Shown here piece after piece: positions 584 to 24,296 of a stretch of DNA of 64,000 nt. This DNA is from an uncultured Pseudorhodobacter sp. (GTDB lineage: Bacteria; Pseudomonadota; Alphaproteobacteria; Rhodobacterales; Rhodobacteraceae), in contig CAJXWJ010000008.1 in the NCBI GenBank assembly GCA_913062925.1, positions 3,907 through 67,906 on the forward strand, given 5' to 3'. The notes under the pieces are model-generated. The model saw only the letters and a list, made by a program, of their open reading frames with translations. It had not been told where the DNA came from and made no database searches. The translations under genes and the position numbers were made by a program. Position 1 is the first letter of the stretch; each line of letters starts with the position of its first letter.

Positions 584-2035
584 ATGCCAGTGACCGACCC
601 CAAGACCGCGCCACAGGGCGACGCGCCCGCGCAGGGCGTGTTGATCAGGGCCGAGAATGGCGATGTGGTTGGCTTTGACGAAACCGGCCTGACGCTGCGG
701 CTGTCAGATCGGGTGATTGCCGATTTGCGGCGACGTTTGGGCTTGCCTGTGACCGTCGAGCCGCAGGCAGCCCAGCTTTTGGGTGATATCGATGCTTGGG
801 GTCTGCGCCAGATTGGCGATTGGCTGCATTTCACCGCAAGGTTGGAACCCGACCGACCGCCGCGCGATTTTCGCAAACCGCTGGATGGCGGCGACATCAT
901 CGCCGATGCAATTGGCCCTTTGCAAGCGATCCTCAGCATCGGCGGCGCGCGACGTGCGGGCTTTAACAACGGCCCTCCCAGCTTTGCCTATCACATTCTG
1001 GCCCCTGCTGATGACATCTTTTCGGTCGGGCTTGAGGGCACGGATGAGGCGCATCCGGTCGCGGGTCTGCAACGCCTGCCCCATTGCAGCCGTGATGCGC
1101 TGACAGCCCAAGCCTTGTTGCAGATGCGCTATGAGGCGATGCAGGCGCTGCCCCTAATGCTGGTGCGGGCCGAGACGGATAATTCCGCCAGCCTCGAGGC
1201 TTTGATTGGCGGGCAGGCCTATGTGAACTTTCTCGCAGCGCTCGATTCGCTGAATTTGGCCGCCGCAAGCTTGGGCAAGCCCGCGCGGGTGCTGGCGGTG
1301 GCGATTGATCTGTCGCTGGAAGACCAGCTTGGCACGCCTGACAGCAAGCTTGTGGCGCTGCGGCGGCTGATGGCGCGGATCGAGGCCGATATGGCGGCGC
1401 GCGGCCTGCATCGGCCAACGTTTCTGCTGACAGCCGAGGCAGGCACCCAGCATCTAAGCCGACATCCAATGATCTTGGCGCATGCGGCTTTGGCTTGGGC
1501 GCATGGGCCGCACCGTGTGGCGCTGCCAGCACCGGGCTATATGTTTGAACAGACCCGCTTTGCCCGCCCCACCCCTGCTGCGCGCATCCGTATGGCCGAG
1601 ATGGACGCCTATGCGATTTCGGCCTTGGCGCGGCGGCAAGACTGGCGCTGCCCGCAGATCTTGCTGGCCGAGGTGATGGGGCGCGCGCTGCGCGTCACCT
1701 GCCGCGCGATGGGCAATCTGGTGCTGGACGATCGCTTGGGCGCGGGGCCGGCGGGCGGCTTTCGTATTGAAACCAGCGGCAAGCCCGTGGCGATTACCGC
1801 GCTGCGCATCGCCGAGGATGACCCGCAGGCGTTGATCCTGACGCTGGACCGCGCGCTGACGGGCAAGGCCGATCTGGCCTATGCTTACGGCGCGCCAACG
1901 CCTTCTAGCGATGCTTTTCCCGCCAATCGTGGCGGATTGCGCGACGGCTGGTTCGCCCCCAGTCGGGCCGAGGGCGGTACGTTGCATCGCTGGGCCCTGC
2001 CTGCGCTGATTCCTATTCATCAAGGGGTCTGGTGA
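584..2035 (+). CDS. Hypothetical protein; degenerate SGNH/sialate-O-acetylesterase-like domain plus C-terminal beta-sandwich (tail-spike-like architecture)
   Basis: ORF 575..2035, ATG at 584 after AGGATAG. C-terminal pattern (LVLDD...GF...I.L.L...LAYAYG...NRGGLRD...LHRWAL) recalls SASA-domain proteins, but GQSN, QGE and DxxH motifs are absent. Stop overlaps next ATG (TGATG). Confidence 0.55.
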   Translation: MPVTDPKTAPQGDAPAQGVLIRAENGDVVGFDETGLTLRLSDRVIADLRRRLGLPVTVEPQAAQLLGDIDAWGLRQIGDWLHFTARLEPDRPPRDFRKPLDGGDIIADAIGPLQAILSIGGARRAGFNNGPPSFAYHILAPADDIFSVGLEGTDEAHPVAGLQRLPHCSRDALTAQALLQMRYEAMQALPLMLVRAETDNSASLEALIGGQAYVNFLAALDSLNLAAASLGKPARVLAVAIDLSLEDQLGTPDSKLVALRRLMARIEADMAARGLHRPTFLLTAEAGTQHLSRHPMILAHAALAWAHGPHRVALPAPGYMFEQTRFARPTPAARIRMAEMDAYAISALARRQDWRCPQILLAEVMGRALRVTCRAMGNLVLDDRLGAGPAGGFRIETSGKPVAITALRIAEDDPQALILTLDRALTGKADLAYAYGAPTPSSDAFPANRGGLRDGWFAPSRAEGGTLHRWALPALIPIHQGVW

Positions 2036-2811
2036 TGGTGATCTTTTATCCGGGCGTGCTGCCCGCAGGCGTCTTGATTGACGCCGATTTCACCCCGCCC
2101 CCGGCGCCGGTGGTGATCGCGCCAAAACCACTTGGTCCGCCTGCCCCGATCTGGTTTTCTACCCGCGACGCCGACAGTCTAGAGTTTACCAGCGCCAGCC
2201 GGGTCACCGGCTGGGCCGCCTGCGCCCCCAGCACCGCGCGCGCGCGGCCCGTGGGCTTTAACAAGGACGGCACTGGCTGGGATGCAGCCAGCCAATCGCT
2301 TGATTTCGTAGAAAAAACCCATGGCGGGCTTTGTGTTGCGGATGCGATTTCTGATGGAAGCTGCTTTAGCCTTGGGCTGATCTACACCCCCCCGCCCAAG
2401 CGGGATGCGCAAACCCTGCTTAGTCTGCAAGCGCGCGAGGACGAGGGCTATGCGTTTCTCTCGGCGGAAAGCGGCTTTATCCGCTTTGGACTGAAGGGCG
2501 GCGAAGCCAGCCTGCATCTGCCAGACCCGCAGCGGCTGACGCTTTTGCTGTTGTCTTCGGATGGACAGCGGGTGCGGATGAGCGCGAACCGCGATCTTGC
2601 GATTTCGGTGGCTTGCGCCCTGCCCGCCGCGCCGCTGGATCTGTTCTTGGGCTGTCGGGGGGGCAGTCGCAGCCTGCTGGGCAAATTGGGCAGCTTTCAG
2701 GCCAGCGATCTGCTGATCTGGCCTGATCAAGACGTATTGGCGGGCGAGGTTGCCCGCGCGCCCGAAGCCGCCCTTTCGCTGTGGCAAGAAAGGCTTCGCA
2801 ATGGCAACTAA
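2035..2811 (+). CDS. Hypothetical protein, probable LamG/concanavalin-A-like jelly-roll domain after a Pro-rich N-terminus
   Basis: WFSTRDADSL...V.GW...L.F pattern and alternating beta-strand stretches. Translationally coupled on both sides. Confidence 0.5.
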   Translation: MVIFYPGVLPAGVLIDADFTPPPAPVVIAPKPLGPPAPIWFSTRDADSLEFTSASRVTGWAACAPSTARARPVGFNKDGTGWDAASQSLDFVEKTHGGLCVADAISDGSCFSLGLIYTPPPKRDAQTLLSLQAREDEGYAFLSAESGFIRFGLKGGEASLHLPDPQRLTLLLLSSDGQRVRMSANRDLAISVACALPAAPLDLFLGCRGGSRSLLGKLGSFQASDLLIWPDQDVLAGEVARAPEAALSLWQERLRNGN

Positions 2812-5119
2812 GACCAAATCTCGCGTCGCAGCCTTTGACCGCGCTGCGGCCGAGGCCAGCAATATCTGTGTGATCTGGATCGACGATATGATCGACATTT
2901 TCACATGGCGCGATGCTTTTGGCGTGACCATCCAAACCCCGAATATTGATCGGCTGATGGCCGAGGGCACGCGTTTTGCCAATGCCTATGCCACCATCCC
3001 GCTCTGCGCGCCCTGTCGGGCCGAGCTGACCACGGGCTTGTCGCCATTTCGCACCGGACTGGTAGATCTGAACCGGTTTTGGCGCGATGTGCTGCCCCCC
3101 ACGGCGGCTTGGCAGTTTGATCTGCGCCGCGCGGGCTTTCGCACCTTTACCACCGGCAAGACCGACGCAAATTATCGCCCGATGCCAGAAGAGTATCGCC
3201 GCGTGCTGTTTCATGAAGATGTCTTGGCCGAAGATGCGGGCCGTCGCGGGCCGCTGACCGAATATCTTGACCGCGGCCCCGGCATTGCGGGGGTGAATGG
3301 GCCAAATGACGATGGCTCGGCCGATGCGACCTTTTACGATTATAGCGTGGCGCAAAACGCCATCGACTATCTGGGTCGCGCCGATCCTGCGCGGCGGCAT
3401 CTGATCCAGCTTGGCTTTAAGCATCCACATTACAATCTGGTTTGCCCGGATCGGTTTTATCAGATGTATGATGCAGCCGCGATCACCTGGCCTGCCAGCG
3501 CGCATCCCGATGATTTTACCGGGCCGCAACCCGGCATGGCGGTTTACGAGCTGGCCTATATCGTCAACGGCGCCTGGACGCCTGAAAAGGCCGGCGATGA
3601 AGGCTGGCGGCAGGTGGTGCGCGGCTATTTTGCGGCCTGTAGCCATGTTGACCACGAAATCGGCCGCTTTATGCAGGCCTTGCGGGCGTCAAAACTGGGC
3701 GATTGCACGACGGTGGTGCTGCTCTCGGACAATGGCTTTAACCTTGGCACCCACGACAGCTTTCACAAAATGAGCCAATGGGACAGCGCGGCCCATGTGC
3801 CCTTGGGGATCTGGCACGCCGGCATGACCCCGCAAGTGATTGATCTACCAGTGTCTTTGCACAATCTGCCCAAGACTATTCTGGATCTGGCAGGCCTGCC
3901 AGCGCGGCCCGAGTGGACTTCGGGGCAATCGCTTTTGCCGCTGATCAACGCGGATTTCGGCAGCTTTGACCGCAGCAAATCGCCGCTGACGGCGGTGTTT
4001 GGCACGCTGTCGGTGCGCCCTTCCACCGAAGGGCTGACGCAATATCGCTATTTCCGCTATCCGAACGGCGAAGAGCATATTTATGATGTCGTCGCCGATA
4101 AGGGCGAGACGACCAATCTGATCGGCTGCGCTGACACCCAAGCCCTGCGCGACGAGCTGGTCGCGGCGGGTGCCCATATCGGCCTTGATCTGCGCGGGCT
4201 TGAACGGCCTGACAGCGGTATCTCGGCGATGATGGCGATGGACGGGATGGTGGTGTTGCAGGGCGGTTTTGCCGACACCCAAGTCTGGGCTTACGGTCAT
4301 GCCGCCGAAGCCGTGCGCGTGACCGAAGCCACCTATGACACGCTGTTTTATCTGGCAGGCCCTGATGGCTATAGCCTGAAAGTGCCGGCAGGCATCAATG
4401 TGGTAAAAATGGCCACCGTGGTTGCGCGCAATGAAACCGAAAGCGAGATCGGCAAGGCGGTGCGGATTGTGGCGCATCCTGACAGCGCGATTGAATTTGA
4501 AGCCTCGGAACGGGTTTCGGTGCATGTCACCGGCAGCCGTGGCGATGATGTTATGGTTGGCCCTGTCTATGCAGGAGCAGTGTTTGAAGGCGGTGCGGGC
4601 AATGATCTTTTGGTCGCGGCCTCGATGCGGCGCAATGACGATCATGCGTTTTATGGCGGGGCGGGCAATGACACCCTGCGCGGCGGAAATGGCCGCGACA
4701 CGCTGGACGGCGGGCCGGGGGATGATCAGATCTACGGCGGCGACGGCTTTAACACCATCTATGGCGGGCCGGGGAATGATAAGATTTTCGACGGCGACCA
4801 CAGCTCGACCATCCACACCGGACCGGGGCGCAACGAGGTCACTTCGGGCGCTGGGGCGGATCAGTTCTTTGTCGGGCCAGGCGAAAATCGCATCACCGGC
4901 GGCGAAGGCGGGGTAACCTATCATGTTGCTTGGGGCGGCGTCTTGACGATCACCGACCTGCGCGACGGCGATACGATTTCGCTGGCAAGCTGGCCGATCG
5001 CACCCAGCTACCATCAAGAGAGCGACCGCATCATCATCTCGGGCGGGCTCAGTTTCATCGAGGTGCTGAACATCTGCGATATCGCGGCGGTGCAGGCCAT
5101 GGTGATCGGACGCAGTTAG
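2801..5119 (+). CDS. Cys-type (formylglycine) sulfatase fused to C-terminal RTX/hemolysin-type Ca-binding repeats
   Basis: IWIDDM, TPNIDRL, CAPCRAELTTG (CxPxR), FKHPH, SDNG and HKMS motifs. Tandem nonapeptides GGAGNDLLV, GGAGNDTLR, GGNGRDTLD, GGPGDDQIY, GGDGFNTIY, GGPGNDKIF from about 4589. ATG at 2801 overlaps the upstream gene end. Confidence 0.9.
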   Translation: MATKTKSRVAAFDRAAAEASNICVIWIDDMIDIFTWRDAFGVTIQTPNIDRLMAEGTRFANAYATIPLCAPCRAELTTGLSPFRTGLVDLNRFWRDVLPPTAAWQFDLRRAGFRTFTTGKTDANYRPMPEEYRRVLFHEDVLAEDAGRRGPLTEYLDRGPGIAGVNGPNDDGSADATFYDYSVAQNAIDYLGRADPARRHLIQLGFKHPHYNLVCPDRFYQMYDAAAITWPASAHPDDFTGPQPGMAVYELAYIVNGAWTPEKAGDEGWRQVVRGYFAACSHVDHEIGRFMQALRASKLGDCTTVVLLSDNGFNLGTHDSFHKMSQWDSAAHVPLGIWHAGMTPQVIDLPVSLHNLPKTILDLAGLPARPEWTSGQSLLPLINADFGSFDRSKSPLTAVFGTLSVRPSTEGLTQYRYFRYPNGEEHIYDVVADKGETTNLIGCADTQALRDELVAAGAHIGLDLRGLERPDSGISAMMAMDGMVVLQGGFADTQVWAYGHAAEAVRVTEATYDTLFYLAGPDGYSLKVPAGINVVKMATVVARNETESEIGKAVRIVAHPDSAIEFEASERVSVHVTGSRGDDVMVGPVYAGAVFEGGAGNDLLVAASMRRNDDHAFYGGAGNDTLRGGNGRDTLDGGPGDDQIYGGDGFNTIYGGPGNDKIFDGDHSSTIHTGPGRNEVTSGAGADQFFVGPGENRITGGEGGVTYHVAWGGVLTITDLRDGDTISLASWPIAPSYHQESDRIIISGGLSFIEVLNICDIAAVQAMVIGRS

Positions 5120-5273
5120 CCTTGCCGCAAAATTGCCCCATTGTTGCCATTCAGGCGACAATGACCAAGGGCACTTTGGCGCGCAGCCCAAAGCCTTTTG
5201 TGATCGTGTTGTAAGTGGAAATGCAGTGCCCCTGACCCAAAGCCCGTTGCAGACAAAATGGACCAACCTGCCG

Positions 5274-6398
5274 ATGTCGCAAGATCTTGCGGGCTTGCAA
5301 GAGGTGTTGCTGGTGCCTTGGGGGCAAAATGAGGTCAAGGGTGCCAAACGCGCTGCGGGGCTTTTTGATGCACAGGGGCAGTTTTTGCCCAGCGGCGACT
5401 GCCTGCGCTGGGCCAATGCGCCGGTGACGGTCGAACCCGAGATTGACCCAAGCGCCCCGCTTACCCGGCTGGAGGGGCGCTATCTTTATGGCGGCATGCT
5501 TTACGGCCATTTCGGACATTTTTTGTGTGAAAGCACGGCACGGCTTTGGGCATTGGCGCGCGATCAGTGCTTTGACGGCGTGGTCTGGTTGCCCAAGGTG
5601 CGACTGGGCCATGCAGCAAAGCTGGTCAAACCCTATCACAGCTTTTTTGCCGCCCTGGGCTTTGAGCGCATTGGCCTGTTTGCGCCACAAACCAATACGG
5701 TGATTGAAAGCCTGGTTATCCCCGAACAGGGGTTTGGCATCGGCGATCTGTCCTCGGGGCGGCCCGAATATCGCGATTTCATGCGCAAGCATCTGGGGGC
5801 CAACCTTGCGGCAGAAGGGGCGGAAAAGCTCTATATCTCGCGCGCGCGCCTGCCGGGAAAGCGCGGCTCGGTGCTGCTGGAACACCTGATAGAGGCGCGG
5901 CTGGAGGCCGAGGGCTATACGGTTTTTCATCCGCAAGATCATAGCCTTGCCGAGCAAATTGCCCAGTATAAGGCCGCGCGCCAGATTGTGGCGCTGGATG
6001 GCTCGGCGCTGCATCTGGCGGCGATGGTGATGCATCCCGCCTGCAAAGTTGCCATCATCAACCGCGGCCCTTCGCAGAATATCGACGACTATCTGCGCCA
6101 GTTCGAAGCCTTTACCGGGGCGGTGCCGACGCGGATTGATGCGGTGAAATCCTATTGGTTTTACGAAGGCCGCCGGGTGGTGAAACGCGAAACCCACGCG
6201 CTGCTGGATTTTCCGGCGCTGGGGCGCGCGCTTGCCGCTGCAGGCTTTCGCTCCGCCACCGCCTGGCGCGCGCCAACCGCAGCCCAGATCGCCGCCGAAG
6301 TGGCCCTGCGCGAGGCCCGCGCCGAAATGCGCCTGACCCGATACGAGGTGTCAGACCAAGCCGAAGAGGCCGAAGCAGACCTGGGGGCAGACCGATGA
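5274..6398 (+). CDS. Glycosyltransferase family 61 (DUF563)-like capsular polysaccharide protein
   Basis: GHFGHFLCES.ARLW, LYISR, HPQ..SL.EQI..Y..A..IVALDGSALH motifs. Start set at ATG 5274. Confidence 0.8.
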   Translation: MSQDLAGLQEVLLVPWGQNEVKGAKRAAGLFDAQGQFLPSGDCLRWANAPVTVEPEIDPSAPLTRLEGRYLYGGMLYGHFGHFLCESTARLWALARDQCFDGVVWLPKVRLGHAAKLVKPYHSFFAALGFERIGLFAPQTNTVIESLVIPEQGFGIGDLSSGRPEYRDFMRKHLGANLAAEGAEKLYISRARLPGKRGSVLLEHLIEARLEAEGYTVFHPQDHSLAEQIAQYKAARQIVALDGSALHLAAMVMHPACKVAIINRGPSQNIDDYLRQFEAFTGAVPTRIDAVKSYWFYEGRRVVKRETHALLDFPALGRALAAAGFRSATAWRAPTAAQIAAEVALREARAEMRLTRYEVSDQAEEAEADLGADR

Positions 6399-7315
6399 AA
6401 AAAGGCGACCTCAGCTTTGTCTTCGTGATCGAAGGGCCAAGGCTGCAAACCCAAAGCCTGCTGCTGGCCGACAGCCTGCGCCGCCATCATCCTTTGGCCG
6501 AGATTATCGCCTATTGTCCGGCAGGCTGTGATTTCCCGCCGGAAATTGCCGCGGTATTACAAGCCTGCGCCGTGTCCTGCCGCCCGCTTGCGGTGCCGCA
6601 GGGGCTTTGGGCGGCGCCCTATCCGCACGGCAATAAGATCCTTGCGCTGGCCCAGCCGCGCGAGACGCGGTTTTCGATGTTTCTAGACACCGATATGGCA
6701 GCGATTGCGCCGATCGACCCCGATGATTTGCCCGGCGCGATGCAGGTCTCGGTGGTGCCCGAAGGCATTGCAAGCTGGGGCAAGGATCTGGCCCGCTGGG
6801 AAGTGGCGCATAGGTTTTTCGATCTGCCGATGCCAAGCGAGCGGATTCACTTACTGCGCGGCCGCAAGCGCGCGTTTTTGCCCTATTTCAACGCCGGCAT
6901 GGTGGCGATCCGCGAGGAAGACCGCGTGCAAGGTTTAGGCTTTGGCGCTTTGTGGCGCAACACCGCCAGCGCCTTTGATTTTGGCGCAAAGGTCGGCGGC
7001 AAGCGGCCGTGGCTGGATCAGATCACCCTGCCGCTCACCATGCGCCGCTTTGGTTTTGCCCATAAAATCGTGGACGAGCGTAACAATTGTTCGATCTCGA
7101 ATGACCGCAGGCTTGATGGGTTGAACCCTGCAATTTTGCACTATCACCGCTCGGGATTTTTGCGCAATTGGCCCGACTATGGCGATCTGATCAGCGCCAT
7201 GCTTGACCGGCTGCCGCAACATCGCGCCGCCCTGACCAATTGGCTGACCCAAGGCGGCTATTTGGGCGATCCGCAGCCAGAACCTGATGCGGCAGAGGGC
7301 GAAGACCATGGCTGA
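6395..7315 (+). CDS. GT-A fold glycosyltransferase (GT8-like)
   Basis: FLDTD (DxD), YFNAGMV, LDQ and ILHYH motifs. ATGA overlap with the upstream stop at 6395-6398. Confidence 0.75.
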   Translation: MKKGDLSFVFVIEGPRLQTQSLLLADSLRRHHPLAEIIAYCPAGCDFPPEIAAVLQACAVSCRPLAVPQGLWAAPYPHGNKILALAQPRETRFSMFLDTDMAAIAPIDPDDLPGAMQVSVVPEGIASWGKDLARWEVAHRFFDLPMPSERIHLLRGRKRAFLPYFNAGMVAIREEDRVQGLGFGALWRNTASAFDFGAKVGGKRPWLDQITLPLTMRRFGFAHKIVDERNNCSISNDRRLDGLNPAILHYHRSGFLRNWPDYGDLISAMLDRLPQHRAALTNWLTQGGYLGDPQPEPDAAEGEDHG

Positions 7316-7351
7316 CACAAGCGTGCACATGCGTGCCAAGGCTGGGCTCTG

Positions 7352-8230
7352 ATGGGCTTTATTGTCGCGGCGATTGTCAACGAACCAAGCGCGGTGCTAG
7401 AGCGATTTGTCAGCTGGTATTTGCGCCAAGGCGCGGATCGGGTGGCGCTGTATTTCGACGACCCTGCGCATCCCGATATAGCCCGCTTTGCCGCTCTGCC
7501 CTGCGTCACCGTTACACCCTGCACGGCAGAGTTTTGGGCCAGCCTTGGGCTATCGGCCGAGGTCCGCTTTACGCTGCGGCAAAATGCTGCGCTGACCCAT
7601 GCCTATCGCGCCCAGACCGAGGGCTGGCTGTTGAATGTCGATGCCGACGAGCTGATGTATGCAGCGGGCAAAACTTTGGCGGCGTGGTTGGCCACGCAGA
7701 CCGAGCCGCAGAGCCTCCGCATCGCCAGCGCCGAACAGATCCACACCGCAGGCCCCCAGCAGCTGTTTCGCCTGCAAATCGCCAAGGCCGAGGTCAATGA
7801 GATTTATGGCGCCGAGTCCGATCTTTTTCGTCGCCGCTATGGCTTGATCGGTCATGCCGATGGCAAGTCTTTTCACCGCGCGGGGCGCAGCGATCTGCGG
7901 CTGCGCCAGCATTGGGCCGAGGATGCCAGCGGCGCCGAAGTGATCGGCACAAGGCTCTTTGCCCGCGATGGGGTGCATCTGTTGCACTATATGGCGCCCA
8001 ATTACGCCGCATGGCGGAACAAGCTGGATTGGCGGTTAAACGCGCATGGCTTCCCCGCCCCGATCAAAGAACGTCTGCGCGCCTGTCAGGCCAGTGCCGA
8101 CCCAGAGGCAGGCTTTCGTGCCCTGTTTGATCTGTTACACGCCCCCGACCCCAAGCAGATTGCGGCGCTTGAAGCCATTGGCGGGATTTTGCGCCTGCCT
8201 GCGGATTTTGGAGCCCCGCAGACAGGCTAA
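7352..8230 (+). CDS. Glycosyltransferase family 2-like (Glyco_tranf_2_4)
   Basis: IVNEP, LYFDDP, RQNA, WLLNVDADE, GKSF and LLHY motifs. Confidence 0.8.
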   Translation: MGFIVAAIVNEPSAVLERFVSWYLRQGADRVALYFDDPAHPDIARFAALPCVTVTPCTAEFWASLGLSAEVRFTLRQNAALTHAYRAQTEGWLLNVDADELMYAAGKTLAAWLATQTEPQSLRIASAEQIHTAGPQQLFRLQIAKAEVNEIYGAESDLFRRRYGLIGHADGKSFHRAGRSDLRLRQHWAEDASGAEVIGTRLFARDGVHLLHYMAPNYAAWRNKLDWRLNAHGFPAPIKERLRACQASADPEAGFRALFDLLHAPDPKQIAALEAIGGILRLPADFGAPQTG

Positions 8231-14069: not shown

Positions 14070-15566
14070 TTATGCAGCCTGATCGCCCGCCGAAGCGGCT
14101 TGGATCAGGGTTTCTGTCGAAAGTGCCGCACCCGACAGCTCGGCCACCACTTGGCCCCGGCTGAACACCACGGCGCGGTGGCAAATATTGGCGATTTCCT
14201 CGAAATCGGTCGAAACCACCAGCACCCCCATGCCCGAGGCAAGCGCTTGGAACAGCAGATGATAAATCTGCGCCTTGGCCCCCACATCGACGCCTGCGGT
14301 CGGGTCTTCGGCGATCAGCAAGCGCCGTCCGGTGTCCAGCCAGCGGCCCACCACCACCTTTTGTTGGTTGCCCCCCGAAAGCGCCTCGATGGCAAGGCTG
14401 GGGTCATTGGGCTGAACGCCCAGACGCGCGCCAAGGCGCTGCGCATGGCCAGCTTCGGTTTTGGCGGTCATGAACGACCACAGCCGCCGCCCGGTGGCCG
14501 AAGGGTTCAAAAAGGCATTCTCGCGGATACTCAGCGCAGGGGCCACCGATTCCACCACGCGGTCACGCGCGACAAAGCCGATGCCGGCGGCCATAGCCCT
14601 GCGCGCCGAGGTCAGATCAGGCGCCTGACCATCCAGCAAGATCGTGCCCGAATGTGGTTCCAAACCAAAGAGCGCGCGGCCAATCTCTTCGTGGCCTGCC
14701 CCACGCAGCCCGACCAGCCCCACCATCTCGCCGCGACGGATGGTCAGATCAATCGGGCCAGCCTTACGGGTCGCCAGCGCGGTTGCGGACAAAAGCTTGG
14801 GGCCTTGCTGGACGTCGGGGCGGTCAATCTCGCGGGTTTTGCGCCCGACGATCAGATCGACAAGGTCTTCGGCCGTGGTTTGCGCAGTGTCGCGCGCGCC
14901 CACCATTTGGCCATCGCGCAACACCGCCACGCGGTCGGAAATCTGAAACACCTCGTCCAAGCGGTGCGAGACATAGATCATCCCAACACCCTTGGCCTTC
15001 AGCGGCCGCAGCGCTGCAAACAGCCGTTCCACCTCATCGGCAGGCAGGCTGGCGGTGGGTTCATCCAGCACCAGAAAATCACATTCCACCGCCAAAGCGC
15101 GGGCGATCGCCACCAGCGATTTTTCTGTGCGCGTCAGGCTTGAGACCCGGGCCGTTGGTTCAAAATCTGCCTCGACAAGCGCAAGCGCTGCGCGCGCCCG
15201 CGCCTCGGTTGCAGGCCAGTCGATCCTTCCGCCGCGCTTGGGGTAGCCCACCGCAAGCGCGATGTTTTCGGCCACACTCATCCATTCGATCAGCCCAAGG
15301 TCTTGGTGAATAAAGGCCACCGCCTGTTTGGCCGCCAGCTTGCCGCTGATGTGTTTATAGGGCGCGCCATCGACCAGAACCTGACCACTGTCTGGCGCAT
15401 AAATACCGCCCAAGGTCTTGATTAGGGTTGATTTTCCAGCACCATTCTCGCCCAAAAGCGCGACAATCTCGCCCCGACGCACCTGCAAGGACACCCCGCG
15501 CAGCGCCCGCGTGCCGCCAAAGGATTTGACGATTGCGTCAAACACCAATCCTTCTTGCTGCGCCAT
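14070..15566 (-). CDS. Sugar ABC transporter ATP-binding protein (RbsA-like, two NBDs)
   Basis: GENGAGKST, LDEPT and LSGGNQQK motifs. Start set at ATG 15566 (MAQQEG). Confidence 0.93.
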   Translation of the reverse strand: MAQQEGLVFDAIVKSFGGTRALRGVSLQVRRGEIVALLGENGAGKSTLIKTLGGIYAPDSGQVLVDGAPYKHISGKLAAKQAVAFIHQDLGLIEWMSVAENIALAVGYPKRGGRIDWPATEARARAALALVEADFEPTARVSSLTRTEKSLVAIARALAVECDFLVLDEPTASLPADEVERLFAALRPLKAKGVGMIYVSHRLDEVFQISDRVAVLRDGQMVGARDTAQTTAEDLVDLIVGRKTREIDRPDVQQGPKLLSATALATRKAGPIDLTIRRGEMVGLVGLRGAGHEEIGRALFGLEPHSGTILLDGQAPDLTSARRAMAAGIGFVARDRVVESVAPALSIRENAFLNPSATGRRLWSFMTAKTEAGHAQRLGARLGVQPNDPSLAIEALSGGNQQKVVVGRWLDTGRRLLIAEDPTAGVDVGAKAQIYHLLFQALASGMGVLVVSTDFEEIANICHRAVVFSRGQVVAELSGAALSTETLIQAASAGDQAA

Positions 15567-15654
15567 TATCCCCCCCGCCTTGACGATTGCACCCCTCCTC
15601 GGGCGCATCATCCTTTGATCACATTTGCGGCAATGAGACTCTGAGTCAAGAAAA

Positions 15655-15670
15655 AAGTTATCGATAACAT
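15655..15670. promoter_or_regulatory. LacI-family GntR/IdnR-type operator
   Basis: AAGTTATCGATAACAT between the divergent ABC operon and glcG-like gene; near-identical to 18203-18218. Confidence 0.75.
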
Positions 15671-15751
15671 TTATCGTGATGCGCCGCGAAACTCTGGCGT
15701 TGTGGCAGGGCCTTGCATCGCCTAGGGTGACGCCAAATCAAAGGAGAGACC

Positions 15752-16174
15752 ATGACGTTTTTTGCCAACACCCTGCGCCTAACCCATAGCGCCACCTTGC
15801 AGATGCTGACCGCTGCCGTGGCGAAAGCCGAAGCCATGGGCCAGCCGCAATGTATCGTGATTGTCGATGCAAGCGGTGAGGTTTTGGGCAAAATTCGCAT
15901 GACGGGCGCAAAGTTTCTGAGCCTGCGCTCGGCCTTTGCCAAGGCGCAAACCGCAGCCTCGATCGGCGCACCGACAGAAAACGTGCCCGAAATCATGCGC
16001 CCCGCGCTTAGTCTTGCCACTCAGGGCGGCATCACTTGGTTGAAGGGCGGCTTGCCCATTCGCATCAAGGGCGAATTGGTCGGCGGCATCGGCATCGGCT
16101 CTGGCACCGGCGATCAGGATTACGAGGTGGCGCTTGCTGCTTTGGCGGCGATTGGCGCGGATCTGCCCGCCTAG
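15752..16174 (+). CDS. GlcG/HbpS-family protein
   Basis: IVIVDASG...RM.GA...S...A..KA.TAA and GG.PI...GE.VGGIG motifs. Confidence 0.85.
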   Translation: MTFFANTLRLTHSATLQMLTAAVAKAEAMGQPQCIVIVDASGEVLGKIRMTGAKFLSLRSAFAKAQTAASIGAPTENVPEIMRPALSLATQGGITWLKGGLPIRIKGELVGGIGIGSGTGDQDYEVALAALAAIGADLPA

Positions 16175-17202
16175 TCAAACACGATCTGCGCTTTCATCGC
16201 GCGGCTGCGGTCGCCTGCGGTTTGAAAGGCCAGCAGCGCCTGCGACAGCGGGAAGGTCTGGGTGATAAAGGGCTTGACGTCGATCAAGCCCTTTTGCATC
16301 AGACTGACCCCAGTAGCGAATTCTTCGTGAAAGCGGAAGGATCCGCGCAAGCTCAATTCCTTGGCCGTCATCGCCTGCACCGGCAGCGTCATATCGCCGC
16401 CAAGCCCCAGCTGAATGATCACGCCGCCCGGCCGCATCGCCGCAATCGCTGCGATCAGCGCAGGGGCCGCCCCCGAGCATTCATAAAGCACATCAAAGCG
16501 GCCCTTGTCTTGGGTATAGGCGGCCAAAGCCTCGGGCACTTGCGCGGTGTTGAGGGTAACATCGGCCCCCGCTTGCCGCGCAAGGCCCAAGGTGAAATCC
16601 GAAAGATCGGTGGCGGCGATAAAATCCGCACCTGCGCGGCGCGCCGCAAGGATGCACAAAATCCCAATCGGGCCGCAACCGGTGACCAGCACCGATTTGC
16701 CAAGCAGCGGCCCCGCGCGGCGGGTGGCACGCAGGCAGACCGCCAGCGGCTCGGCCATTGCCGCCTCGCCGGCCGTTAGCCCATCGGCTGGCACGCATTG
16801 GCTGGCATCGGCCACCAAGACCTGCCGAAATGCGCCCTGAATATGCGGAAAAGGCATGGCCGAGCCGTAAAAGCGCATATTCAGGCAGTGGTTGAACATC
16901 GCCTTTTGGCAATAGCTGCACTGATGGCATGGCCGCGAGGGCGAAACCGCCACCAATTGCCCCAGCGCCAACCCCGTCACCCCCTGCCCCAGCGCGGTGA
17001 TATGGCCCGAAACCTCGTGGCCCAGCACCATCGGCTCGCGCAAGCGGATCGCGCCAAAGCCGCCGTGGTTGAAGTAATGCAGATCCGAGCCGCAAATCCC
17101 CCCCGTGGCCAGCCGAATTTCGACTTGGCCCGCACCAAGGGGTTCGGGCGCGGTTTCTTCGATCCGCAGGTCTTTTGCGGCATGGATGACGATAGATTTC
17201 AT
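16171..17202 (-). CDS. idnD: L-idonate 5-dehydrogenase (Zn-dependent MDR)
   Basis: GGICGSDLHYFNHGGFG, LGHEVSG, CLNMRFYGSAM.FPHIQGAF and GSFRF motifs; next to idnO/idnK-like genes. Confidence 0.85.
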   Translation of the reverse strand: MKSIVIHAAKDLRIEETAPEPLGAGQVEIRLATGGICGSDLHYFNHGGFGAIRLREPMVLGHEVSGHITALGQGVTGLALGQLVAVSPSRPCHQCSYCQKAMFNHCLNMRFYGSAMPFPHIQGAFRQVLVADASQCVPADGLTAGEAAMAEPLAVCLRATRRAGPLLGKSVLVTGCGPIGILCILAARRAGADFIAATDLSDFTLGLARQAGADVTLNTAQVPEALAAYTQDKGRFDVLYECSGAAPALIAAIAAMRPGGVIIQLGLGGDMTLPVQAMTAKELSLRGSFRFHEEFATGVSLMQKGLIDVKPFITQTFPLSQALLAFQTAGDRSRAMKAQIVFD

Positions 17203-18150
17203 TCAGATCACCAAACTTGGCAGGGGCTGGCCTGCAAAATGCGCGCTTAGGTTTTGGCGCAGCAACGCGCCCATGCCCTGACGGGTCTCATAGGTGCCAG
17301 AGCCGTGATGCGGCTGCAAGAAGGCTTGCGGCAGCGCCTTAAAGCGCGGGTTCAGCGCGGGTTCGCCCTCGAACACATCAAGGGCAGCGGCGCGCAGGGC
17401 GCCAGTTTCCAGCGCATCCAGAAGTGCGGTCTCATCAACATTGGCGGCGCGGCTGACGTTGATCAACATGCCCTGCGGGCCAAGCGCCTTGATCACCGCA
17501 GCATTGACGATATGGCGGGTTTCGGCACTGGCGGCGAGGGTGACAAACAGAAAGTCGACCTCTTGCGCCAGCGCCACAGGGTCTTGGATAAAGGCCCAAT
17601 CGGCGGGCACCTCTTTGCGGCTTTGGCTGGAATAGGCGATCTGCATATCAAAGCCCGCCAGCCGTTTGGCCACCGCATGGCCAATCCGGCCCAGCCCCAA
17701 GACCCCCGCGCGCCGCCCCCAGACCCGGCTTTGCAGCGGATAGCCGCCCTTGGCCACCCAATCGCCCGAGCGCGCCCAAGCCTCGGCCGCAAGCATGCCG
17801 CGCGTCTGCGCCAGCATCATCGCCACCGCCAGATCGGCGACGTCATTGGTCAGCACATCGGGGGTGTTGGTCACCCGAATGCCGCGCGCGCGGCAAGCCG
17901 CCAGATCTACGGCATCATAGCCCACCCCGTAGACCGAGATCAGTTCAAGCTGTGGACAGGCCGCGATGATCTGCGCCGAGGCCCCCAATTCGCCGCGCGT
18001 GGCAATGGCGCGAATGCGCGGGCCAACCTGAGCCAGAAAGGCAGGCTTATCAGCGGCCTCGAAATAGCGATGCACCTGAAAGGCCGCCTCGAGCGGAATT
18101 TGGTCCCAATCAGGATAGGCGCCCATTTGCAGGAGATCTGGTTTTGACAT
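17203..18150 (-). CDS. D-isomer-specific 2-hydroxyacid dehydrogenase (2-ketoaldonate reductase-like)
   Basis: GVGYDAVD, GVLGLGRIG and LDVFEGEP motifs; stop abuts the idnD start. Confidence 0.9.
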   Translation of the reverse strand: MSKPDLLQMGAYPDWDQIPLEAAFQVHRYFEAADKPAFLAQVGPRIRAIATRGELGASAQIIAACPQLELISVYGVGYDAVDLAACRARGIRVTNTPDVLTNDVADLAVAMMLAQTRGMLAAEAWARSGDWVAKGGYPLQSRVWGRRAGVLGLGRIGHAVAKRLAGFDMQIAYSSQSRKEVPADWAFIQDPVALAQEVDFLFVTLAASAETRHIVNAAVIKALGPQGMLINVSRAANVDETALLDALETGALRAAALDVFEGEPALNPRFKALPQAFLQPHHGSGTYETRQGMGALLRQNLSAHFAGQPLPSLVI

Positions 18151-18202
18151 ATTTGACTTTCCAAGGCGGGCTTTATGGTTGACCTAGAGTCGCAGCTGCT
18201 AC

Positions 18203-18218
18203 ATGTTATCGATAACAT
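18203..18218. promoter_or_regulatory. LacI-family GntR/IdnR-type operator
   Basis: Perfect 16-bp palindrome ATGTTATCGATAACAT matching the ATGTTA-N4-TAACAT GntR consensus, between divergent operons. Confidence 0.85.
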
Positions 18219-18259
18219 AGCCGATTCATTTTCCCCCTGTCGAGCCTAAAAGGATGACC

Positions 18260-19027
18260 ATGAGCCTAAGCTTATTTGACCTGACCGCAAAACGCGCCCT
18301 GATCACCGGATCGTCGCAGGGCATAGGCATGGCCTTGGCGCGCGGCATGGCCGCAGCAGGGGCCGAGATTGTGATGAATGGGCGGGATGCGGCCAAGCTG
18401 ACAGCGGCGGCAAATGTCTTGCGCGGCGAAGGCTTTACCATTCACGAGCTGGTGTTTGACGTCACCGACCACAACGCTGTGCGCGCCGCGGTTGATGGCT
18501 TTGAGGCCGAGGTTGGCGCGATTGACATCTTGGTCAACAATGCCGGCATGCAGCATCGCGGCCCGCTGGAGGAATTTCCCGCCGATGCCTTCGAGCGGCT
18601 GTTACAGACCAATGTTGCTTCGGTGTTTCATGTCGGCCAAGCCTGCGCACGCCATATGATCGCGCGCGGCGCGGGCAAGATCGTCAATGTGGCCAGCGTG
18701 CAATCGGCCCTCGCCCGCCCCGGCATCGCGCCCTATACCGCCACCAAAGGTGCTGTGTCGAACCTGACCAAAGGCATGGCCACCGATTGGGCCAAACACG
18801 GGTTACAATGCAATGCGCTGGCACCGGGCTATTTCCTGACGCCGCTGAACAAGGCGCTGAGCGACGATCCCGCCTTTACCGATTGGCTGTGCAAGCGCAC
18901 CCCCGCAGGGCGCTGGGGCAATGTCGAAGAGCTGGTCGGAGCCTGCATCTTCCTGTCGTCGCAGGCCTCGTCTTTCGTCAATGGCACCACGCTTTACATT
19001 GACGGCGGCATCACGGTTTCGCTGTGA
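18260..19027 (+). CDS. idnO: Gluconate 5-dehydrogenase (SDR)
   Basis: LITGSSQGIG, NNAGMQHR, ASVQS.LARPGIAPYTATKG and PAGRWG motifs. Confidence 0.88.
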   Translation: MSLSLFDLTAKRALITGSSQGIGMALARGMAAAGAEIVMNGRDAAKLTAAANVLRGEGFTIHELVFDVTDHNAVRAAVDGFEAEVGAIDILVNNAGMQHRGPLEEFPADAFERLLQTNVASVFHVGQACARHMIARGAGKIVNVASVQSALARPGIAPYTATKGAVSNLTKGMATDWAKHGLQCNALAPGYFLTPLNKALSDDPAFTDWLCKRTPAGRWGNVEELVGACIFLSSQASSFVNGTTLYIDGGITVSL

Positions 19028-19506
19028 CGCGCTATGTGGTGATGGGGGTTTCGGGCTGTGGCAAAAGCCGGATTGGTGCGGCCTTTGCGCAGGCAAAGGG
19101 CTTGCGCTTTGTCGATGGCGACGATCTGCACCCTGCTGCCAATATCGCCAAGATGCGCCGCGGCGCGCCGCTGACCGACGCCGATCGCGCGCCTTGGCTG
19201 GCGCAGGTTGGCGCGGTTTTGGCGCGTGACGGCACGGTCGTGGCTTGTTCGGCGCTGAAACGCGCCTACCGCGACCAGATCCGGCAGGCGGCGGCGGCCT
19301 CGGTGACGTTTCTATACCTGCGCGGCAGTCGCGCGGTTTTGCTGGCACGGATGCAGGCAAGGCCGGGGCATTTCATGCCGCCTTCGCTTTTGGACAGCCA
19401 GCTTGCAACGCTGGAAGCGCCCAGCTTGGATGAAACCTTTGTGATGGCTGATATTGACCAGCCCCCCGAAGCGATTATTGCCCAGTTTCAGGAGGCCTTG
19501 CGATGA
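19024..19506 (+). CDS. idnK: Gluconokinase
   Basis: VMGVSGCGKS, DGDDLHP.ANI.KM..G.PLTD.DR.PWL, CSALKR.YRD and HFMP.SLLDSQ motifs. Confidence 0.92.
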   Translation: MTRYVVMGVSGCGKSRIGAAFAQAKGLRFVDGDDLHPAANIAKMRRGAPLTDADRAPWLAQVGAVLARDGTVVACSALKRAYRDQIRQAAAASVTFLYLRGSRAVLLARMQARPGHFMPPSLLDSQLATLEAPSLDETFVMADIDQPPEAIIAQFQEALR

Positions 19507-20390
19507 GCCAGAAAATCGCCTTGATCGGTGCGGGTGCCATGGGCGGCGCGATTGGCGCGCGGCTGGTGCAGATGGGGCAAGATCTGACGGTCTATGATCT
19601 GGACGCCGAGAAGGTGGCAGCGCTTGTAAGCTTGGGCGCGACGGCCGCAAGCTCGGCGGCCATGGCGGCAGCGCAGGCCGATTTTGTGGTGATCAGCCTG
19701 AACGCGGCGCAGATTGTCGAGCGGGCCGTGTTTGGCCCGCAGGGCGTGGCCGAAGGCGCGAAGGCTGGCAGCTTGCTGATTGATATGTCCTCGATTGACC
19801 CCGATGCCACCAAGGCGCTGGCGGCCAAAGCCGCAGCACTTGGTCTGCGCTGGGTGGACAGCCCGCTGTCAGGCGGCGCACCCAAGGTGGCACTGGGGCA
19901 ATTGACCCTGATGGTGGGGGGGGCCGCGCAGGATGTGGCCGAGGCGCAGCAGATCTTGCAGCATCTGGCCAGCAATTACACCCATATGGGCCACGTTGGC
20001 GCAGGCCAGACCACCAAGCTGATCAATCAGGTGCTTTGTGGATTGAACTTCATGGCAGTGGCCGAAGCGACGCAGCTGGCGCTTGCCGCAGGCGTGGATG
20101 CGGCAAAAATCCCGCAAGCGCTGCGCGGCGGGCGGGCCGACAGCGCGATCTTGCAAGAATATATGCCGCGCTTTGCGACGAAGGATTATCGCCGCACAGG
20201 CCGGATAGATAATATGGTCAAAGACCTGAATGCCGCGCAAGATTTGGCACGGCGCAGCAACACATCAATGCCGCTGACCGCCGTTTGCGCCGAGATCCAC
20301 CGCATGCTGACCGCCGCCGGTTTGGGCGGCGAAGATCAAGCCGCACTGATGGAATATTTCACCGGACCAAATAAGGATTTCTTCGCATGA
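19503..20390 (+). CDS. NAD(P)-dependent beta-hydroxyacid dehydrogenase (3-hydroxyisobutyrate/tartronate-semialdehyde reductase family)
   Basis: LIGAGAMG, DMSSI, DSPLSGG and GAGQTTKLINQ motifs. Confidence 0.88.
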   Translation: MSQKIALIGAGAMGGAIGARLVQMGQDLTVYDLDAEKVAALVSLGATAASSAAMAAAQADFVVISLNAAQIVERAVFGPQGVAEGAKAGSLLIDMSSIDPDATKALAAKAAALGLRWVDSPLSGGAPKVALGQLTLMVGGAAQDVAEAQQILQHLASNYTHMGHVGAGQTTKLINQVLCGLNFMAVAEATQLALAAGVDAAKIPQALRGGRADSAILQEYMPRFATKDYRRTGRIDNMVKDLNAAQDLARRSNTSMPLTAVCAEIHRMLTAAGLGGEDQAALMEYFTGPNKDFFA

Positions 20391-20719
20391 TCACCCGATT
20401 TGCTGTGTTTGAGGGCCAATTAAAGCCGGGCACCACCGAGGCCTTTCGCGCCGCCGTCACCGCGCAGCTTGTGCCTTTGTGGCGGCAATTTCCCGGCAAT
20501 ACCGATGTGCGTGTCAGCTTTGGCTGCGAACGTGACGAAGGCGCGCCGGAATTTCCGCTGATGCTGGCGATCAGCTACCCCGACCGCGCAGCGCTGGACC
20601 AAGCGCTGACCAGCCCGTTTCGCGCCCAATCGCGCGATGTCACGGCCCAAATCGTGGCGCAGTATTTCGAGGGCCGCATCCATCATCATGTCACCGAGGC
20701 CCAAGAATACAAAGGCTAG
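20387..20719 (+). CDS. Small EthD-like dimeric alpha/beta-barrel protein
   Basis: 110 aa, coupled ATGA start; H..LV..FPG…Y.D..AL..AL.SP.R-type EthD pattern (LVPLWRQFPG, YPDRAALDQALTSPFR). Confidence 0.6.
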   Translation: MITRFAVFEGQLKPGTTEAFRAAVTAQLVPLWRQFPGNTDVRVSFGCERDEGAPEFPLMLAISYPDRAALDQALTSPFRAQSRDVTAQIVAQYFEGRIHHHVTEAQEYKG

Positions 20720-20775
20720 TCAGCATAGACAGCGCCGCGCAAAGCTGACAAGCAGCGCGGCGAAAGCGGGGAAAG

Positions 20776-21789
20776 ATGCAGCAAAGCGCGAAAACCATGA
20801 AGGATGTGGCCCAAGCGGCGGGGGTGTCGGTGATGACCGTCAGCCGCGCCTTTAAGGCTGATCGCTCGGTTTCCGACAGCACGCGCGAGCGCATTCGCCA
20901 GATTGCCGATGATCTGGGCTATGTCTTTGACAGCACTGCCGCCAATCTGCGCACCCAAAAAACCAGCTTTGTTGCGGTGACGATTCCGTCGATCAACAAT
21001 GCCAACTTTGCCGATACGGTGGGGGCGCTGTCTGATCGGCTGGCCGAGGCGGGAATGCAGGTGCTGCTGGGCTATAGCGGCTATAGTGTGGCCAAAGAAG
21101 AAGAGCTGATCGAGCAACTGCTGCGCAGGCGGCCCGAGGCGATTGTGGTTACAGGCGGGCGGCACAGCCCGCGCAGCCGCAAGATGCTGGCCAATGCGGG
21201 CATTCCAGTGATTGAAACCTGGGACCTGCCCGAAGCTCCGCTGGGTCATGTGGTGGGCTTTTCCAATGCCGATACCATGGCCGCAATGGTCGATCACCTT
21301 GCCGCGCGCGGCATGCAGCGGATCGGCTTTATCGGCGGCGATACCGATGGCGACACCCGCGGCGCGGACCGCCGGCGCGGCTTTATCGCGGCGATGCAGC
21401 GCCACGGCTTGGCCACTGACCGGCTGATTGGCGCAGGCCGCCCGCCGATCTCGATGCGCGAGGGGGCGGCGGCAATGGGGCAACTTCTGGACAGTCTGCC
21501 CGATACCCAAGCGGTGGTTTGCGTCTCGGACCTATCGGCCTTTGGGGCGCTGACCGAATGCCAGCGCCGCGGCATCAAAGTGCCCGAGCAGATCGCGATT
21601 GCAGGCTTTGGGGCCTATGAAATCGCAGGGATTTCGCATCCGACCATCACCACCATCGACCCGCGCCCGCGCCTGATTGGGCTAGAGGCCGCAAACCTGA
21701 TCCTGACCTTGCTGGACCCAAAGCGCGCAGCACTTGCGCCCAAGACCGTCAAGATCGACTGGCAGCTTTGCGCCGCCCAAACCACCTAA
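20776..21789 (+). CDS. LacI-family transcriptional regulator (GntR/IdnR-like)
   Basis: TMKDVAQAAGVSVMTVSRA HTH; PVIETWDL and VGFSN motifs typical of gluconate repressor-like proteins. Confidence 0.9.
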   Translation: MQQSAKTMKDVAQAAGVSVMTVSRAFKADRSVSDSTRERIRQIADDLGYVFDSTAANLRTQKTSFVAVTIPSINNANFADTVGALSDRLAEAGMQVLLGYSGYSVAKEEELIEQLLRRRPEAIVVTGGRHSPRSRKMLANAGIPVIETWDLPEAPLGHVVGFSNADTMAAMVDHLAARGMQRIGFIGGDTDGDTRGADRRRGFIAAMQRHGLATDRLIGAGRPPISMREGAAAMGQLLDSLPDTQAVVCVSDLSAFGALTECQRRGIKVPEQIAIAGFGAYEIAGISHPTITTIDPRPRLIGLEAANLILTLLDPKRAALAPKTVKIDWQLCAAQTT

Positions 21790-24110: not shown

Positions 24111-24296
24111 CCCTGCGCCGCGTTGTTTCCAAGATTGTGGGTAATGTAGCATATTTTGTCCCATTGGGGCGGATATTTACTACAATTGGTTATCAATTAA
24201 CCTCAAACGTATATATTTTACTTTACTTCAAGGTAGGCCAGCGGCAAACCTTCTGCTGAGTGTAGTTGTTTTCCTATGAGTAAGGGGCCTGCCGCC

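Follow-up and report, generated by a model that had tools for sequence, protein, structure and literature searches.

Homologues of a phage tail-fibre cassette with an RTX sulfatase-family protein in glycosyltransferase islands of Rhodobacterales

The DNA considered here is a 64-kb stretch from an uncultured Pseudorhodobacter sp., and "the window" refers throughout to that whole stretch. Between positions 584 and 8230 it carries six open reading frames on the + strand, g1 to g6, all of which had been recorded as same-strand genes in a preliminary description of the DNA. The first three, referred to together as the trio, encode a fibre-tip protein (g1), a jelly-roll protein (g2), and a sulfatase-family protein with RTX repeats (g3). 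The trio is a phage tail-fibre cassette, since Rhodobacterales phages encode homologues of all three members, identically ordered, at the tail-fibre position. The proposal developed below, for which confidence is evenly balanced, is that g1-g3 are a domesticated phage tail-fibre tip cassette whose products would form a receptor-binding, desulfating complex acting on a glycan that the enzymes of neighboring genes help to build.

The observations in the preliminary description were largely correct and its interpretation was partly right. Its idea of a glycan-related system with a sulfatase is borne out by an intact-looking sulfatase, a predicted lectin-type fold, and linkage to glycosyltransferase genes, but the phage tail-fibre origin of g1-g3 had been missed.

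Tail-fibre cassettes in Rhodobacterales phages

A search of 1.84 billion representative proteins with a g1-family profile retrieved 500 relatives. Beyond the orthologues of g1, these are mostly proteins of 600-1350 amino acids (aa) that are matched over their C-terminal 300-450 aa (E 1e-20 to 1e-31), and several of them have N-termini resembling those of phage tail fibres. Genomic context was read for five relatives (P0258, P0289, P0251, P0222, and P0266), of which three were phage fibres and two were cellular trio proteins.

Three unrelated phages or prophages of Rhodobacterales carry the cassette at the tail-fibre position. The first (L088) encodes a tape measure, a 309-aa protein, a 1347-aa fibre, a 257-aa protein, and a 743-aa sulfatase with RTX repeats, followed by an endolysin-like peptidase and a DNA polymerase. 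The second (L089) is a P2/Mu-type prophage, of the Paracoccus aminovorans type, that is also represented in IMG/VR as UViG_2806310740_000005, with the order baseplate V/W/J/I, 648-aa fibre, 263-aa protein, 759-aa sulfatase-RTX protein, sheath, and tube. The third (L098) has a tape measure, a distal tail protein, a host-specificity protein, a 716-aa fibre with a PHROG tail-fibre N-terminus, a 257-aa protein, and a sulfatase-RTX protein.

All members of these cassettes are homologous to those of the trio. The match between g1 and the fibres covers aa 38-474 of g1 and only the C-terminal ∼440 aa of the fibres (E 1e-11 to 1e-16), while g3 aligns with the phage sulfatase-RTX proteins from end to end, RTX block and C-terminal domain included (E 1e-64 to 1e-94), and the g2 family matches the family of phage middle proteins over 143 columns (hhalign, E 6e-5). 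The phage copies share with the trio a SASA domain devoid of the catalytic Ser and His, retain the sulfatase active site, and have collinear RTX blocks. Their fibres differ from g1 in having 220-940 additional N-terminal residues and in lying among tail genes, whereas the window copy is truncated, ∼30% identical, and located in a glycosyltransferase island of the core chromosome.

The g1 protein of the window consists of the distal fibre part only, with neither shaft nor virion anchor, and no virion-attachment domain is recognizable in the window trio. No phage or gene transfer agent (GTA) structural genes were found in the window or in 85 related loci, and the window trio is not a prophage. 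The g3 proteins of the form found in the window (type 1) are a tight group, with pairwise identity of at least 59%, and are ∼30-33% identical to the phage copies and to those of a second cellular form (type 2, described below). An old domestication fits this pattern of absent phage genes, a missing anchor, intact and conserved genes, and a tight type-1 g3 group.

Phage tailspikes and fibres carry glycosidases, lyases, and esterases. When g3 was searched against cultured phages, the sole matches, from faecal contigs and phages of Campylobacter, were to unrelated sulfatases, and sequence searches with g1 of the PDB, INPHARED phages, and IMG/VR returned nothing. A limited search of the full-text open-access literature found no paper combining a sulfatase with a phage tail fibre or tailspike, and as far as these searches show, the phage cassettes themselves are undescribed. 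The trio joins two known themes, the capture of phage parts by hosts and phage receptor-binding proteins that act as enzymes. With three phage tail modules carrying an intact-looking sulfatase at the fibre position, the idea that sulfated glycans are phage receptors in Rhodobacterales becomes directly testable.

A further fibre, P0251 (L093, 10001-12973), combines an intact GDSL lipase/esterase (aa 310-504) with a g1-type distal domain that lacks the Ser and His. It adjoins a tail set resembling that of the gene transfer agent RcGTA (DUF2460, Phage_BR0599, and Phage-tail_3), on a contig that ends before the positions of g2 and g3.

Architecture of the three proteins

The fibre-tip protein g1 (584..2035, + strand, 483 aa) matched no Pfam or NCBIfam family model. 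Its AlphaFold2 model, with a predicted local distance difference test (pLDDT) value of 89.8, divides into three parts: aa 18-100 form a small beta domain at the N-terminus, aa ∼105-350 adopt the SASA/SGNH fold, and aa ∼356-481 make up a beta-sandwich at the C-terminus. The top Foldseek match in the PDB is the tailspike of the cyanophage Pan3 (9vyh, chains o/m, E 1e-18), followed by the acetylesterases XAC1771 (7kmm, E 6e-10), SIAE (8f9o), CE20 (9ega), and NanS (3pt5), all in keeping with a flavodoxin-like SGNH fold. Phage proteins are also the top matches among the predicted viral structures in BFVD (E 4e-21), and g1 matches a PHROG tail fibre family with an E value of 1.5e-4.

Neither the block I serine (GxS) nor the block V histidine (DxxH) of catalytic SGNH enzymes is present in g1. 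Block I reads G120-G121-(A/P/T)-R123 after the first strand of the SGNH domain, an equivalence based on the predicted strand-helix position and manual alignment and not on structural superposition, and block V reads R325-F-A-R328 (family pattern RFxRPT), aligned with DFVH of Pan3 gp14. R123 and R328 are invariant among 35 g1-family sequences, and remote relatives of g1 are likewise without the esterase Ser and His. The term "pseudo-esterase", under which the preliminary description had introduced g1, is a fair one for a protein that structure prediction and alignment indicate to be non-catalytic. The two arginines at the former esterase site may form an anion-binding pocket.

No sequence family matched g2 (2032..2811, + strand, 259 aa). 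Its AlphaFold2 model (pLDDT 85.7) shows a LamG/laminin-G-type jelly roll accompanied by a conserved N-terminal peptide, a Pro/Ala linker, and a C-terminal helix. The fold has 146 PDB matches at E<=1e-3; neurexin LNS, agrin LG, and the binding domain of botulinum neurotoxin are found by Foldseek, as is chain p of 9vyh (Pan3 gp15, 270 aa, TM-scores 0.53/0.51). The label "lectin-like", previously attached to g2, held up at the level of the predicted fold. Structure prediction with Foldseek, which had been named as a check, thus recovered both folds and added the Pan3 tailspike match.

The Pan3 tailspike (GenBank ON968454) comes from a podophage of Pseudanabaena and is the closest solved relative. 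In the Pan3 genome, a 745-aa tail spike, gp14, is followed directly by a 270-aa hypothetical protein, gp15, and the chain lengths in 9vyh correspond to these two adjacent genes. Both gp14 and g1 have a SASA/SGNH fold with a C-terminal beta-sandwich and the C-terminal motifs YA..G, RGxxRD, and WAxPA, and gp15, like g2, is a LamG-like protein, of ∼270 aa. Since fold and gene order both match gp14-gp15, g1 and g2 reproduce a phage tailspike gene pair. Unlike g1, gp14 retains the esterase motifs GQS and DFVH and has a 300-aa N-terminal anchor and shaft, and unlike in the trio, no sulfatase-RTX gene follows the Pan3 pair. Sequence similarity between gp14 and g1 is marginal (hhalign E 0.015).

The third protein, g3 (2801..5119, + strand, 772 aa), is by sequence an S1 (formylglycine) sulfatase with RTX repeats, in agreement with the "RTX-sulfatase" of the preliminary description. 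Pfam detects a Sulfatase domain (PF00884, E 2e-32) and four copies of the RTX repeat (PF00353, E 1.9e-16). The sulfatase domain (aa ∼20-450) is followed by a linker domain, by tandem nonapeptide repeats of the GGxGxDxUx type near the C-terminus (aa ∼575-730, encoded at 4523..4990, + strand), and by a C-terminal tail, the last 37 residues of which are poorly conserved. Choline sulfatase BetC (6fny) matches with an E value of 5e-30, and residues D28-D29, C69APCR73, and the GK, HPH, SDNG, and HK motifs of g3 align with it. The codons of the CxPxR formylglycine motif (C69-A-P-C-R73) lie at 3005..3019 on the + strand, their translation aligning with PLCAPAR of BetC. The catalytic residues are invariant in 68 orthologues, and the fold, the formylglycine motif, and the metal and catalytic residues of S1 sulfatases are all present. 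The sulfatase looks intact and is predicted to be active.

BetC and the carbohydrate S1 sulfatases share with g3 the fold, the CxPxR motif, and the metal and acid-base residues. However, g3 scores far below the equivalog cutoffs (145 bits against 433), has an additional C-terminal part of ∼320 aa with the RTX repeats, and is genetically coupled to two binding proteins. Another comparison is offered by the rhizobial ExsH, PlyA/PlyB, and EglC type of enzyme, RTX-fused glycanases that have a dedicated type I export system and no phage origin; g3 gives a weak match to the NCBIfam EglC model. Like these, g3 would be an alphaproteobacterial RTX-fused enzyme for surface polysaccharide, but its RTX block is common to the virion-borne form, and no type I secretion gene is among its recurrent neighbors. 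As an inheritance from the phage form, this block does not by itself speak for type I secretion.

Median pairwise identity falls from 67% for g3 to 44% for g1 and 29% for g2, making g2 the fastest-evolving subunit of the trio. This order of conservation is the pattern expected of an enzyme core combined with diversifying binding subunits.

Distribution and glycosyltransferase islands

Relatives of g1 occur in at least 202 species in a scan of one genome per species, and 80 loci were fetched. Every named organism among these loci belongs to Rhodobacterales, an abundant marine and freshwater group. In 76 of the 80 loci g1 and g3 are found together, the remainder being mostly contigs cut short. 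Transitive clustering recognized g2 in 47 loci, and in one clade it lies just upstream of g1 and g3 and not between them. RefSeq annotates g1 and g2 as hypothetical proteins and g3 as "sulfatase-like hydrolase/transferase", and the present analysis provides an annotation for two widespread "hypothetical proteins" and for several unmodelled glycosyltransferase families.

Glycosyltransferase genes lie within 10 kb of the trio, at one to seven per locus, in 53 of the 58 loci with complete flanks, and in three of the five exceptions (L048, L054, and L061) such genes were found by tblastn. They stand on both sides of the trio and on both strands. The particular genes seen in the window are replaceable partners, since g4-type GT61 genes are present in 27, g5-like genes in 37, and g6 in 11 of the 80 loci, with the families U614, C3, C5, and GT90 often substituting for them. 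Of the synteny proposed earlier for all six genes, the linkage between the trio and glycosyltransferases was confirmed, while g4-g6 did not prove to be fixed partners; the association of the trio with a glycosyltransferase toolkit is robust although its specific members can be exchanged.

The identity of the neighboring genes varies by genus, and a single limited repertoire of soluble families, none with transmembrane segments, accounts for all of them. One such neighbor, in 51-57 loci, is a GT2_4/GT92-like enzyme of 600 aa with a fused methyltransferase. C3, a very conserved 271-aa DxD protein with no Pfam model and a weak SetA-like match, is present in 50 loci, and GT90 genes are near the trio in 17. 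U614 and C5 are common and are paralogous families of g6, and the islands further include GT2_4 paralogues, FkbM and other methyltransferases, GSCFA proteins, and a putative rhamnosyltransferase.

In the window, g4 (5274..6398, + strand, with an alternative GTG start at 5226) is a GT61 glycosyltransferase (PF04577, 53.8 bits against a cutoff of 27) with no transmembrane segment, and g6 (7352..8230, + strand) is a GT-A glycosyltransferase of the Glyco_tranf_2_4 family (PF13704, 41.6 bits against a cutoff of 27.5). The GT61- and GT2-like motifs noted in the preliminary description were therefore substantiated by these matches, but the GT8 assignment of g5 (6395..7315, + strand) was not, only generic GT-A motifs being present. 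No Pfam or NCBIfam model, PF01501 included, no GT8 structure, and no PDB sequence matched g5, whether alone or as a family profile. Its relatives number 1593, the best 120 of which were listed with no Pfam domain, and some of them carry the UniRef name "Nucleotide-diphospho-sugar transferase". Invariant residues are D98/D100 (DxD), G168, L207-D208-Q209, and H249-Y250, and an NAG motif is conserved, its G being invariant. These features fit a generic DxD GT-A enzyme, probably a nucleotide-sugar transferase of an unmodelled family. Profile comparison of g5 with C3 was uninformative (E 0.014).

The type-2 form of the trio is more phage-like, with g1 homologues of 509-600 aa. In Cognatiyoonia koreensis (L092) it adjoins a Wzy-type polysaccharide cluster (15152-21719) that encodes Bac_transf, a Wzz/GNVR kinase, Wzy_C, GT2, and two sulfotransferases of the 3′-phosphoadenosine-5′-phosphosulfate type, with a PAAR-RHS toxin gene upstream. 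This cluster hints directly at the involvement of a sulfated polysaccharide, as no other observation does, and initiating and export genes for polysaccharides were seen solely beside this Cognatiyoonia trio. Further type-2 copies lie near an IS66 element and, on a Paracoccus plasmid, behind a GH16 gene.

Mobility of the type-1 island is apparent in Aliiroseovarius sp. M344, where the entire island (L103, 4352-19746) is located on a 179-kb mobilizable plasmid (NZ_CP081154.1). Two GT2 genes, a GT90 gene, a methyltransferase gene, and two hypothetical genes are followed there by the trio, a GT61 gene, and an FkbM gene, beside IS3 and Tn3 transposases and a recombinase. Being whole on a mobilizable plasmid and flanked by IS3 and Tn3, the island can move as a unit. 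Besides this strain, Sulfitobacter marinus DSM 23422 and Rhodobacter sp. SW2 are culturable carriers.

Three island families have no Pfam model, namely C3 (271 aa), C9 (262 aa), and U298 (∼300 aa, with a weak esterase match), with examples at L019 6221-7036, L082 6576-7364, and L030 8952-9893. They look like uncharacterized glycan-modifying enzymes specific to Rhodobacterales. A flagellar link was rejected; the gene series motB-flgE-flgK-flgL-flgI follows the island only in Salinihabitans flavidus (L005/L049, 15765-21437), one of the 80 loci. A weak SWM_repeat match is present in g1.

Proposed function and alternative explanations

If the trio is a domesticated tail-fibre tip, its three tightly co-translated proteins would form one complex, by analogy with enzymatic tailspikes. 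The fast-evolving g2, together with g1, would recognize a glycan on the cell surface, from which g3 would strip sulfate or a related ester. RTX repeats require millimolar calcium for folding, and the RTX block would fold solely in the calcium of the extracellular environment. The most likely target would be a glycan decorated by the surrounding soluble glycosyltransferases and methyltransferases, on the producing cell or its kin, and the purpose could be remodelling of the matrix or capsule, editing of receptors, or help for a GTA. The closest functional analogues would be enzymatic tailspikes and the receptor-binding proteins of GTAs. Recruitment of a phage receptor-binding module by the host bears on GTAs, on capsule and biofilm remodelling, and on phage resistance.

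Several observations weigh against this proposal. "Sulfatase" is a family assignment for g3, and S1-family enzymes can also cleave phosphonate or phosphate esters. No formylglycine-generating enzyme or radical-SAM maturase was found among the ten large window ORFs (open reading frames) scanned with Pfam. Neither g1 nor g2 has a signal peptide that would take the complex to a surface glycan, and no type I secretion component (ABC transporter or membrane-fusion protein) is among the gene families recurring within 10 kb in the window and the 85 loci, one-off genes there being unannotated. With g3 controlled for, the divergence of g1 and g2 does not covary with the glycosyltransferase repertoire (partial r -0.08/0.08, p 0.84/0.13). 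A tblastn query with one sulfotransferase found no such gene in the type-1 islands, and initiating phosphoglycosyl transferases, flippases, polymerases, and exporters are absent from their recurrent gene families, which leaves sulfation of the product and its location at the surface conjectural.

Receptor-binding proteins of GTAs provide an instructive parallel, and it is possible, though unlikely, that the trio is an accessory fibre or spike of a Rhodobacterales GTA, which would be made in the GTA-producing subpopulation, be released by GTA-programmed lysis, and process the capsule or exopolysaccharide (EPS) of recipients so that particles could reach or bind them. The receptor-binding proteins of RcGTA (the head-spike fibres rcc01079/80, rcc00171, and the detachable tailspike TspA) resemble the trio in being phage-derived, in recognizing glycans, and in being encoded beside polysaccharide genes, and they resemble g1 and g2 in being encoded apart from other phage genes and without export signals, which would fit release by lysis. 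The location of these genes away from the main RcGTA cluster, beside capsule/EPS genes, has been reported (Hynes et al. 2016, PMC5026251), and a preprint (bioRxiv 10.64898/2026.07.19.739414) describes a GTA tailspike that is detachable and depends on calcium. The g1-type fibre in L093 lies behind RcGTA-like tail genes (DUF2460, BR0599, and Phage-tail_3), which also favors a GTA role. However, g1 has no recognizable particle-attachment domain, and no GTA gene is near any of the 85 loci. The trio was found in 202 species, while at least 50% of the alphaproteobacterial genomes sequenced are reported to have GTA clusters (PMC9552610). By published description only, rcc01079/80 are beta-strand fibres with no conserved domains, rcc00171 is a predicted beta-helix tailspike, and no sulfatase accompanies them, unlike g1-g3, and identity of the trio with the RcGTA head-spike and tail genes was rejected on that basis. 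Control by CtrA was rejected as well, there being no TTAA-N7-TTAA box or conserved k-mer upstream of g1 in 81 loci.

A separate observation concerns Rcc00280, an extracellular repressor of RcGTA production, which is described as an RTX calcium-binding protein (Ding et al. 2019).

A more speculative extension of the domestication proposal, and one that is improbable as it stands, is that cells turn the captured phage tip against phages or use it for a GTA, so that removal of sulfate, or of a related ester, from a surface glycan required as receptor by phages with the same cassette would amount, at the level of the population, to a novel form of phage exclusion. A subset of the cells would release or secrete the complex, and the rapidly reshuffled glycosyltransferase island would diversify the same glycan. 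If this were true, phages of Rhodobacterales would use sulfated glycans as receptors, and virions would carry a new class of receptor-destroying enzyme, the sulfatases.

The preliminary description had interpreted all six genes as a build-and-edit module for a sulfated or acetylated glycan. As a cytoplasmic or periplasmic operon, such a module would use g4-g6 to build the polysaccharide and g1-g3 to trim it during biosynthesis. Same-strand clustering, translational coupling, the near-constant proximity of glycosyltransferase genes, and the sulfotransferase-containing polysaccharide cluster adjoining the related trio in Cognatiyoonia all speak for it. Yet g4, g5, and g6 are replaceable, occurring in 27, 37, and 11 of 80 loci, and the glycosyltransferase genes stand on both sides of the trio and on both strands. 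Pfam on recurrent gene families found no acetyltransferase in the type-1 islands, which also lack, among the genes searched, a sulfotransferase, export machinery, and nucleotide-sugar pathway genes, and they do not constitute a Wzx/Wzy- or ABC-dependent polysaccharide cluster; single tblastn matches to a phosphoglycosyl transferase and to Wzz lie at the edges of L017 and L045. The homologues of the trio are virion tail-fibre components that act from outside, and the calcium requirement of RTX folding is also at odds with trimming inside the cell. The interpretation was not upheld by this evidence and now seems distinctly unlikely.

Soluble enzymes could also modify the trio itself. Cytoplasmic glycosylation before release occurs for flagellins, autotransporters, and some S-layer proteins, and the trio or one of its members might be an acceptor glycosylated in this manner by the soluble GT-A enzymes and methyltransferases. 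All families of the island are soluble, lipid-carrier and export genes are missing from the recurrent families, the trio is the sole constant element of the island, and GT61 and GT90 include eukaryotic protein O-glycosyltransferases. Nevertheless, g1-g3 show no obvious acceptor region, whether Ser/Thr-rich or made of repeats, the phage copies in L088 and L089 have no adjoining glycosyltransferase genes, and the island glycosyltransferase families are widespread in Rhodobacterales, the g5 family alone having 1593 relatives; this explanation is very doubtful.

Finally, phage ancestry and the mobility of the IS3/Tn3-flanked island in Aliiroseovarius sp. M344 might be cited for a functionless remnant of a decaying prophage. 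This reading is highly improbable because of the conservation, with reading frames intact in at least 202 species, g3 identity of at least 59% with an invariant active site, conserved overlapping starts, and no other phage genes nearby.

Layout and chromosomal setting of the locus

The stop/start overlaps that had been reported among g1-g3 and between g4 and g5 were verified as 4 nucleotides (nt) for g1/g2, 11 nt for g2/g3, and 4 nt (ATGA) for g4/g5, and the overlapping starts within g1-g3 are conserved in related loci. Two in-frame start candidates are available for g4, GTG at 5226, used in the public gene call, and ATG at 5274, giving a g3-g4 gap of 106 to 154 nt depending on the choice; the g5-g6 gap is 36 nt. 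A weak hairpin followed by a T run (5174..5193, + strand; six pairs, three of them G-C) lies in the g3-g4 gap, in a region where the terminator-like scan found such sites to be no commoner than in shuffled sequence. The hairpin may attenuate read-through from the trio into the glycosyltransferase genes.

Ordinary chromosomal genes flank the six-gene region, whose base composition resembles that of the flanks. NicO and LysR genes lie upstream, 2-hydroxyacid dehydrogenase and sugar ABC transport genes lie downstream, and MiaB, PhoH, Lnt, MetK, AroA, and SdhA are encoded further along the window. No near-identical DNA was found among plasmids, and none of the six proteins matched a PADLOC anti-phage defence model.

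Two perfect 6-1-6 palindromes, ATTGGTAACCAAT (475-487) and GTCAAGACTTGAC (503-515), are located 70-110 nt upstream of g1. They are absent upstream of g1 in every other fetched locus, and a copy of ATTGGTAACCAAT with one mismatch is present at 24185-24197 of the window. The two palindromes may be operator sites.

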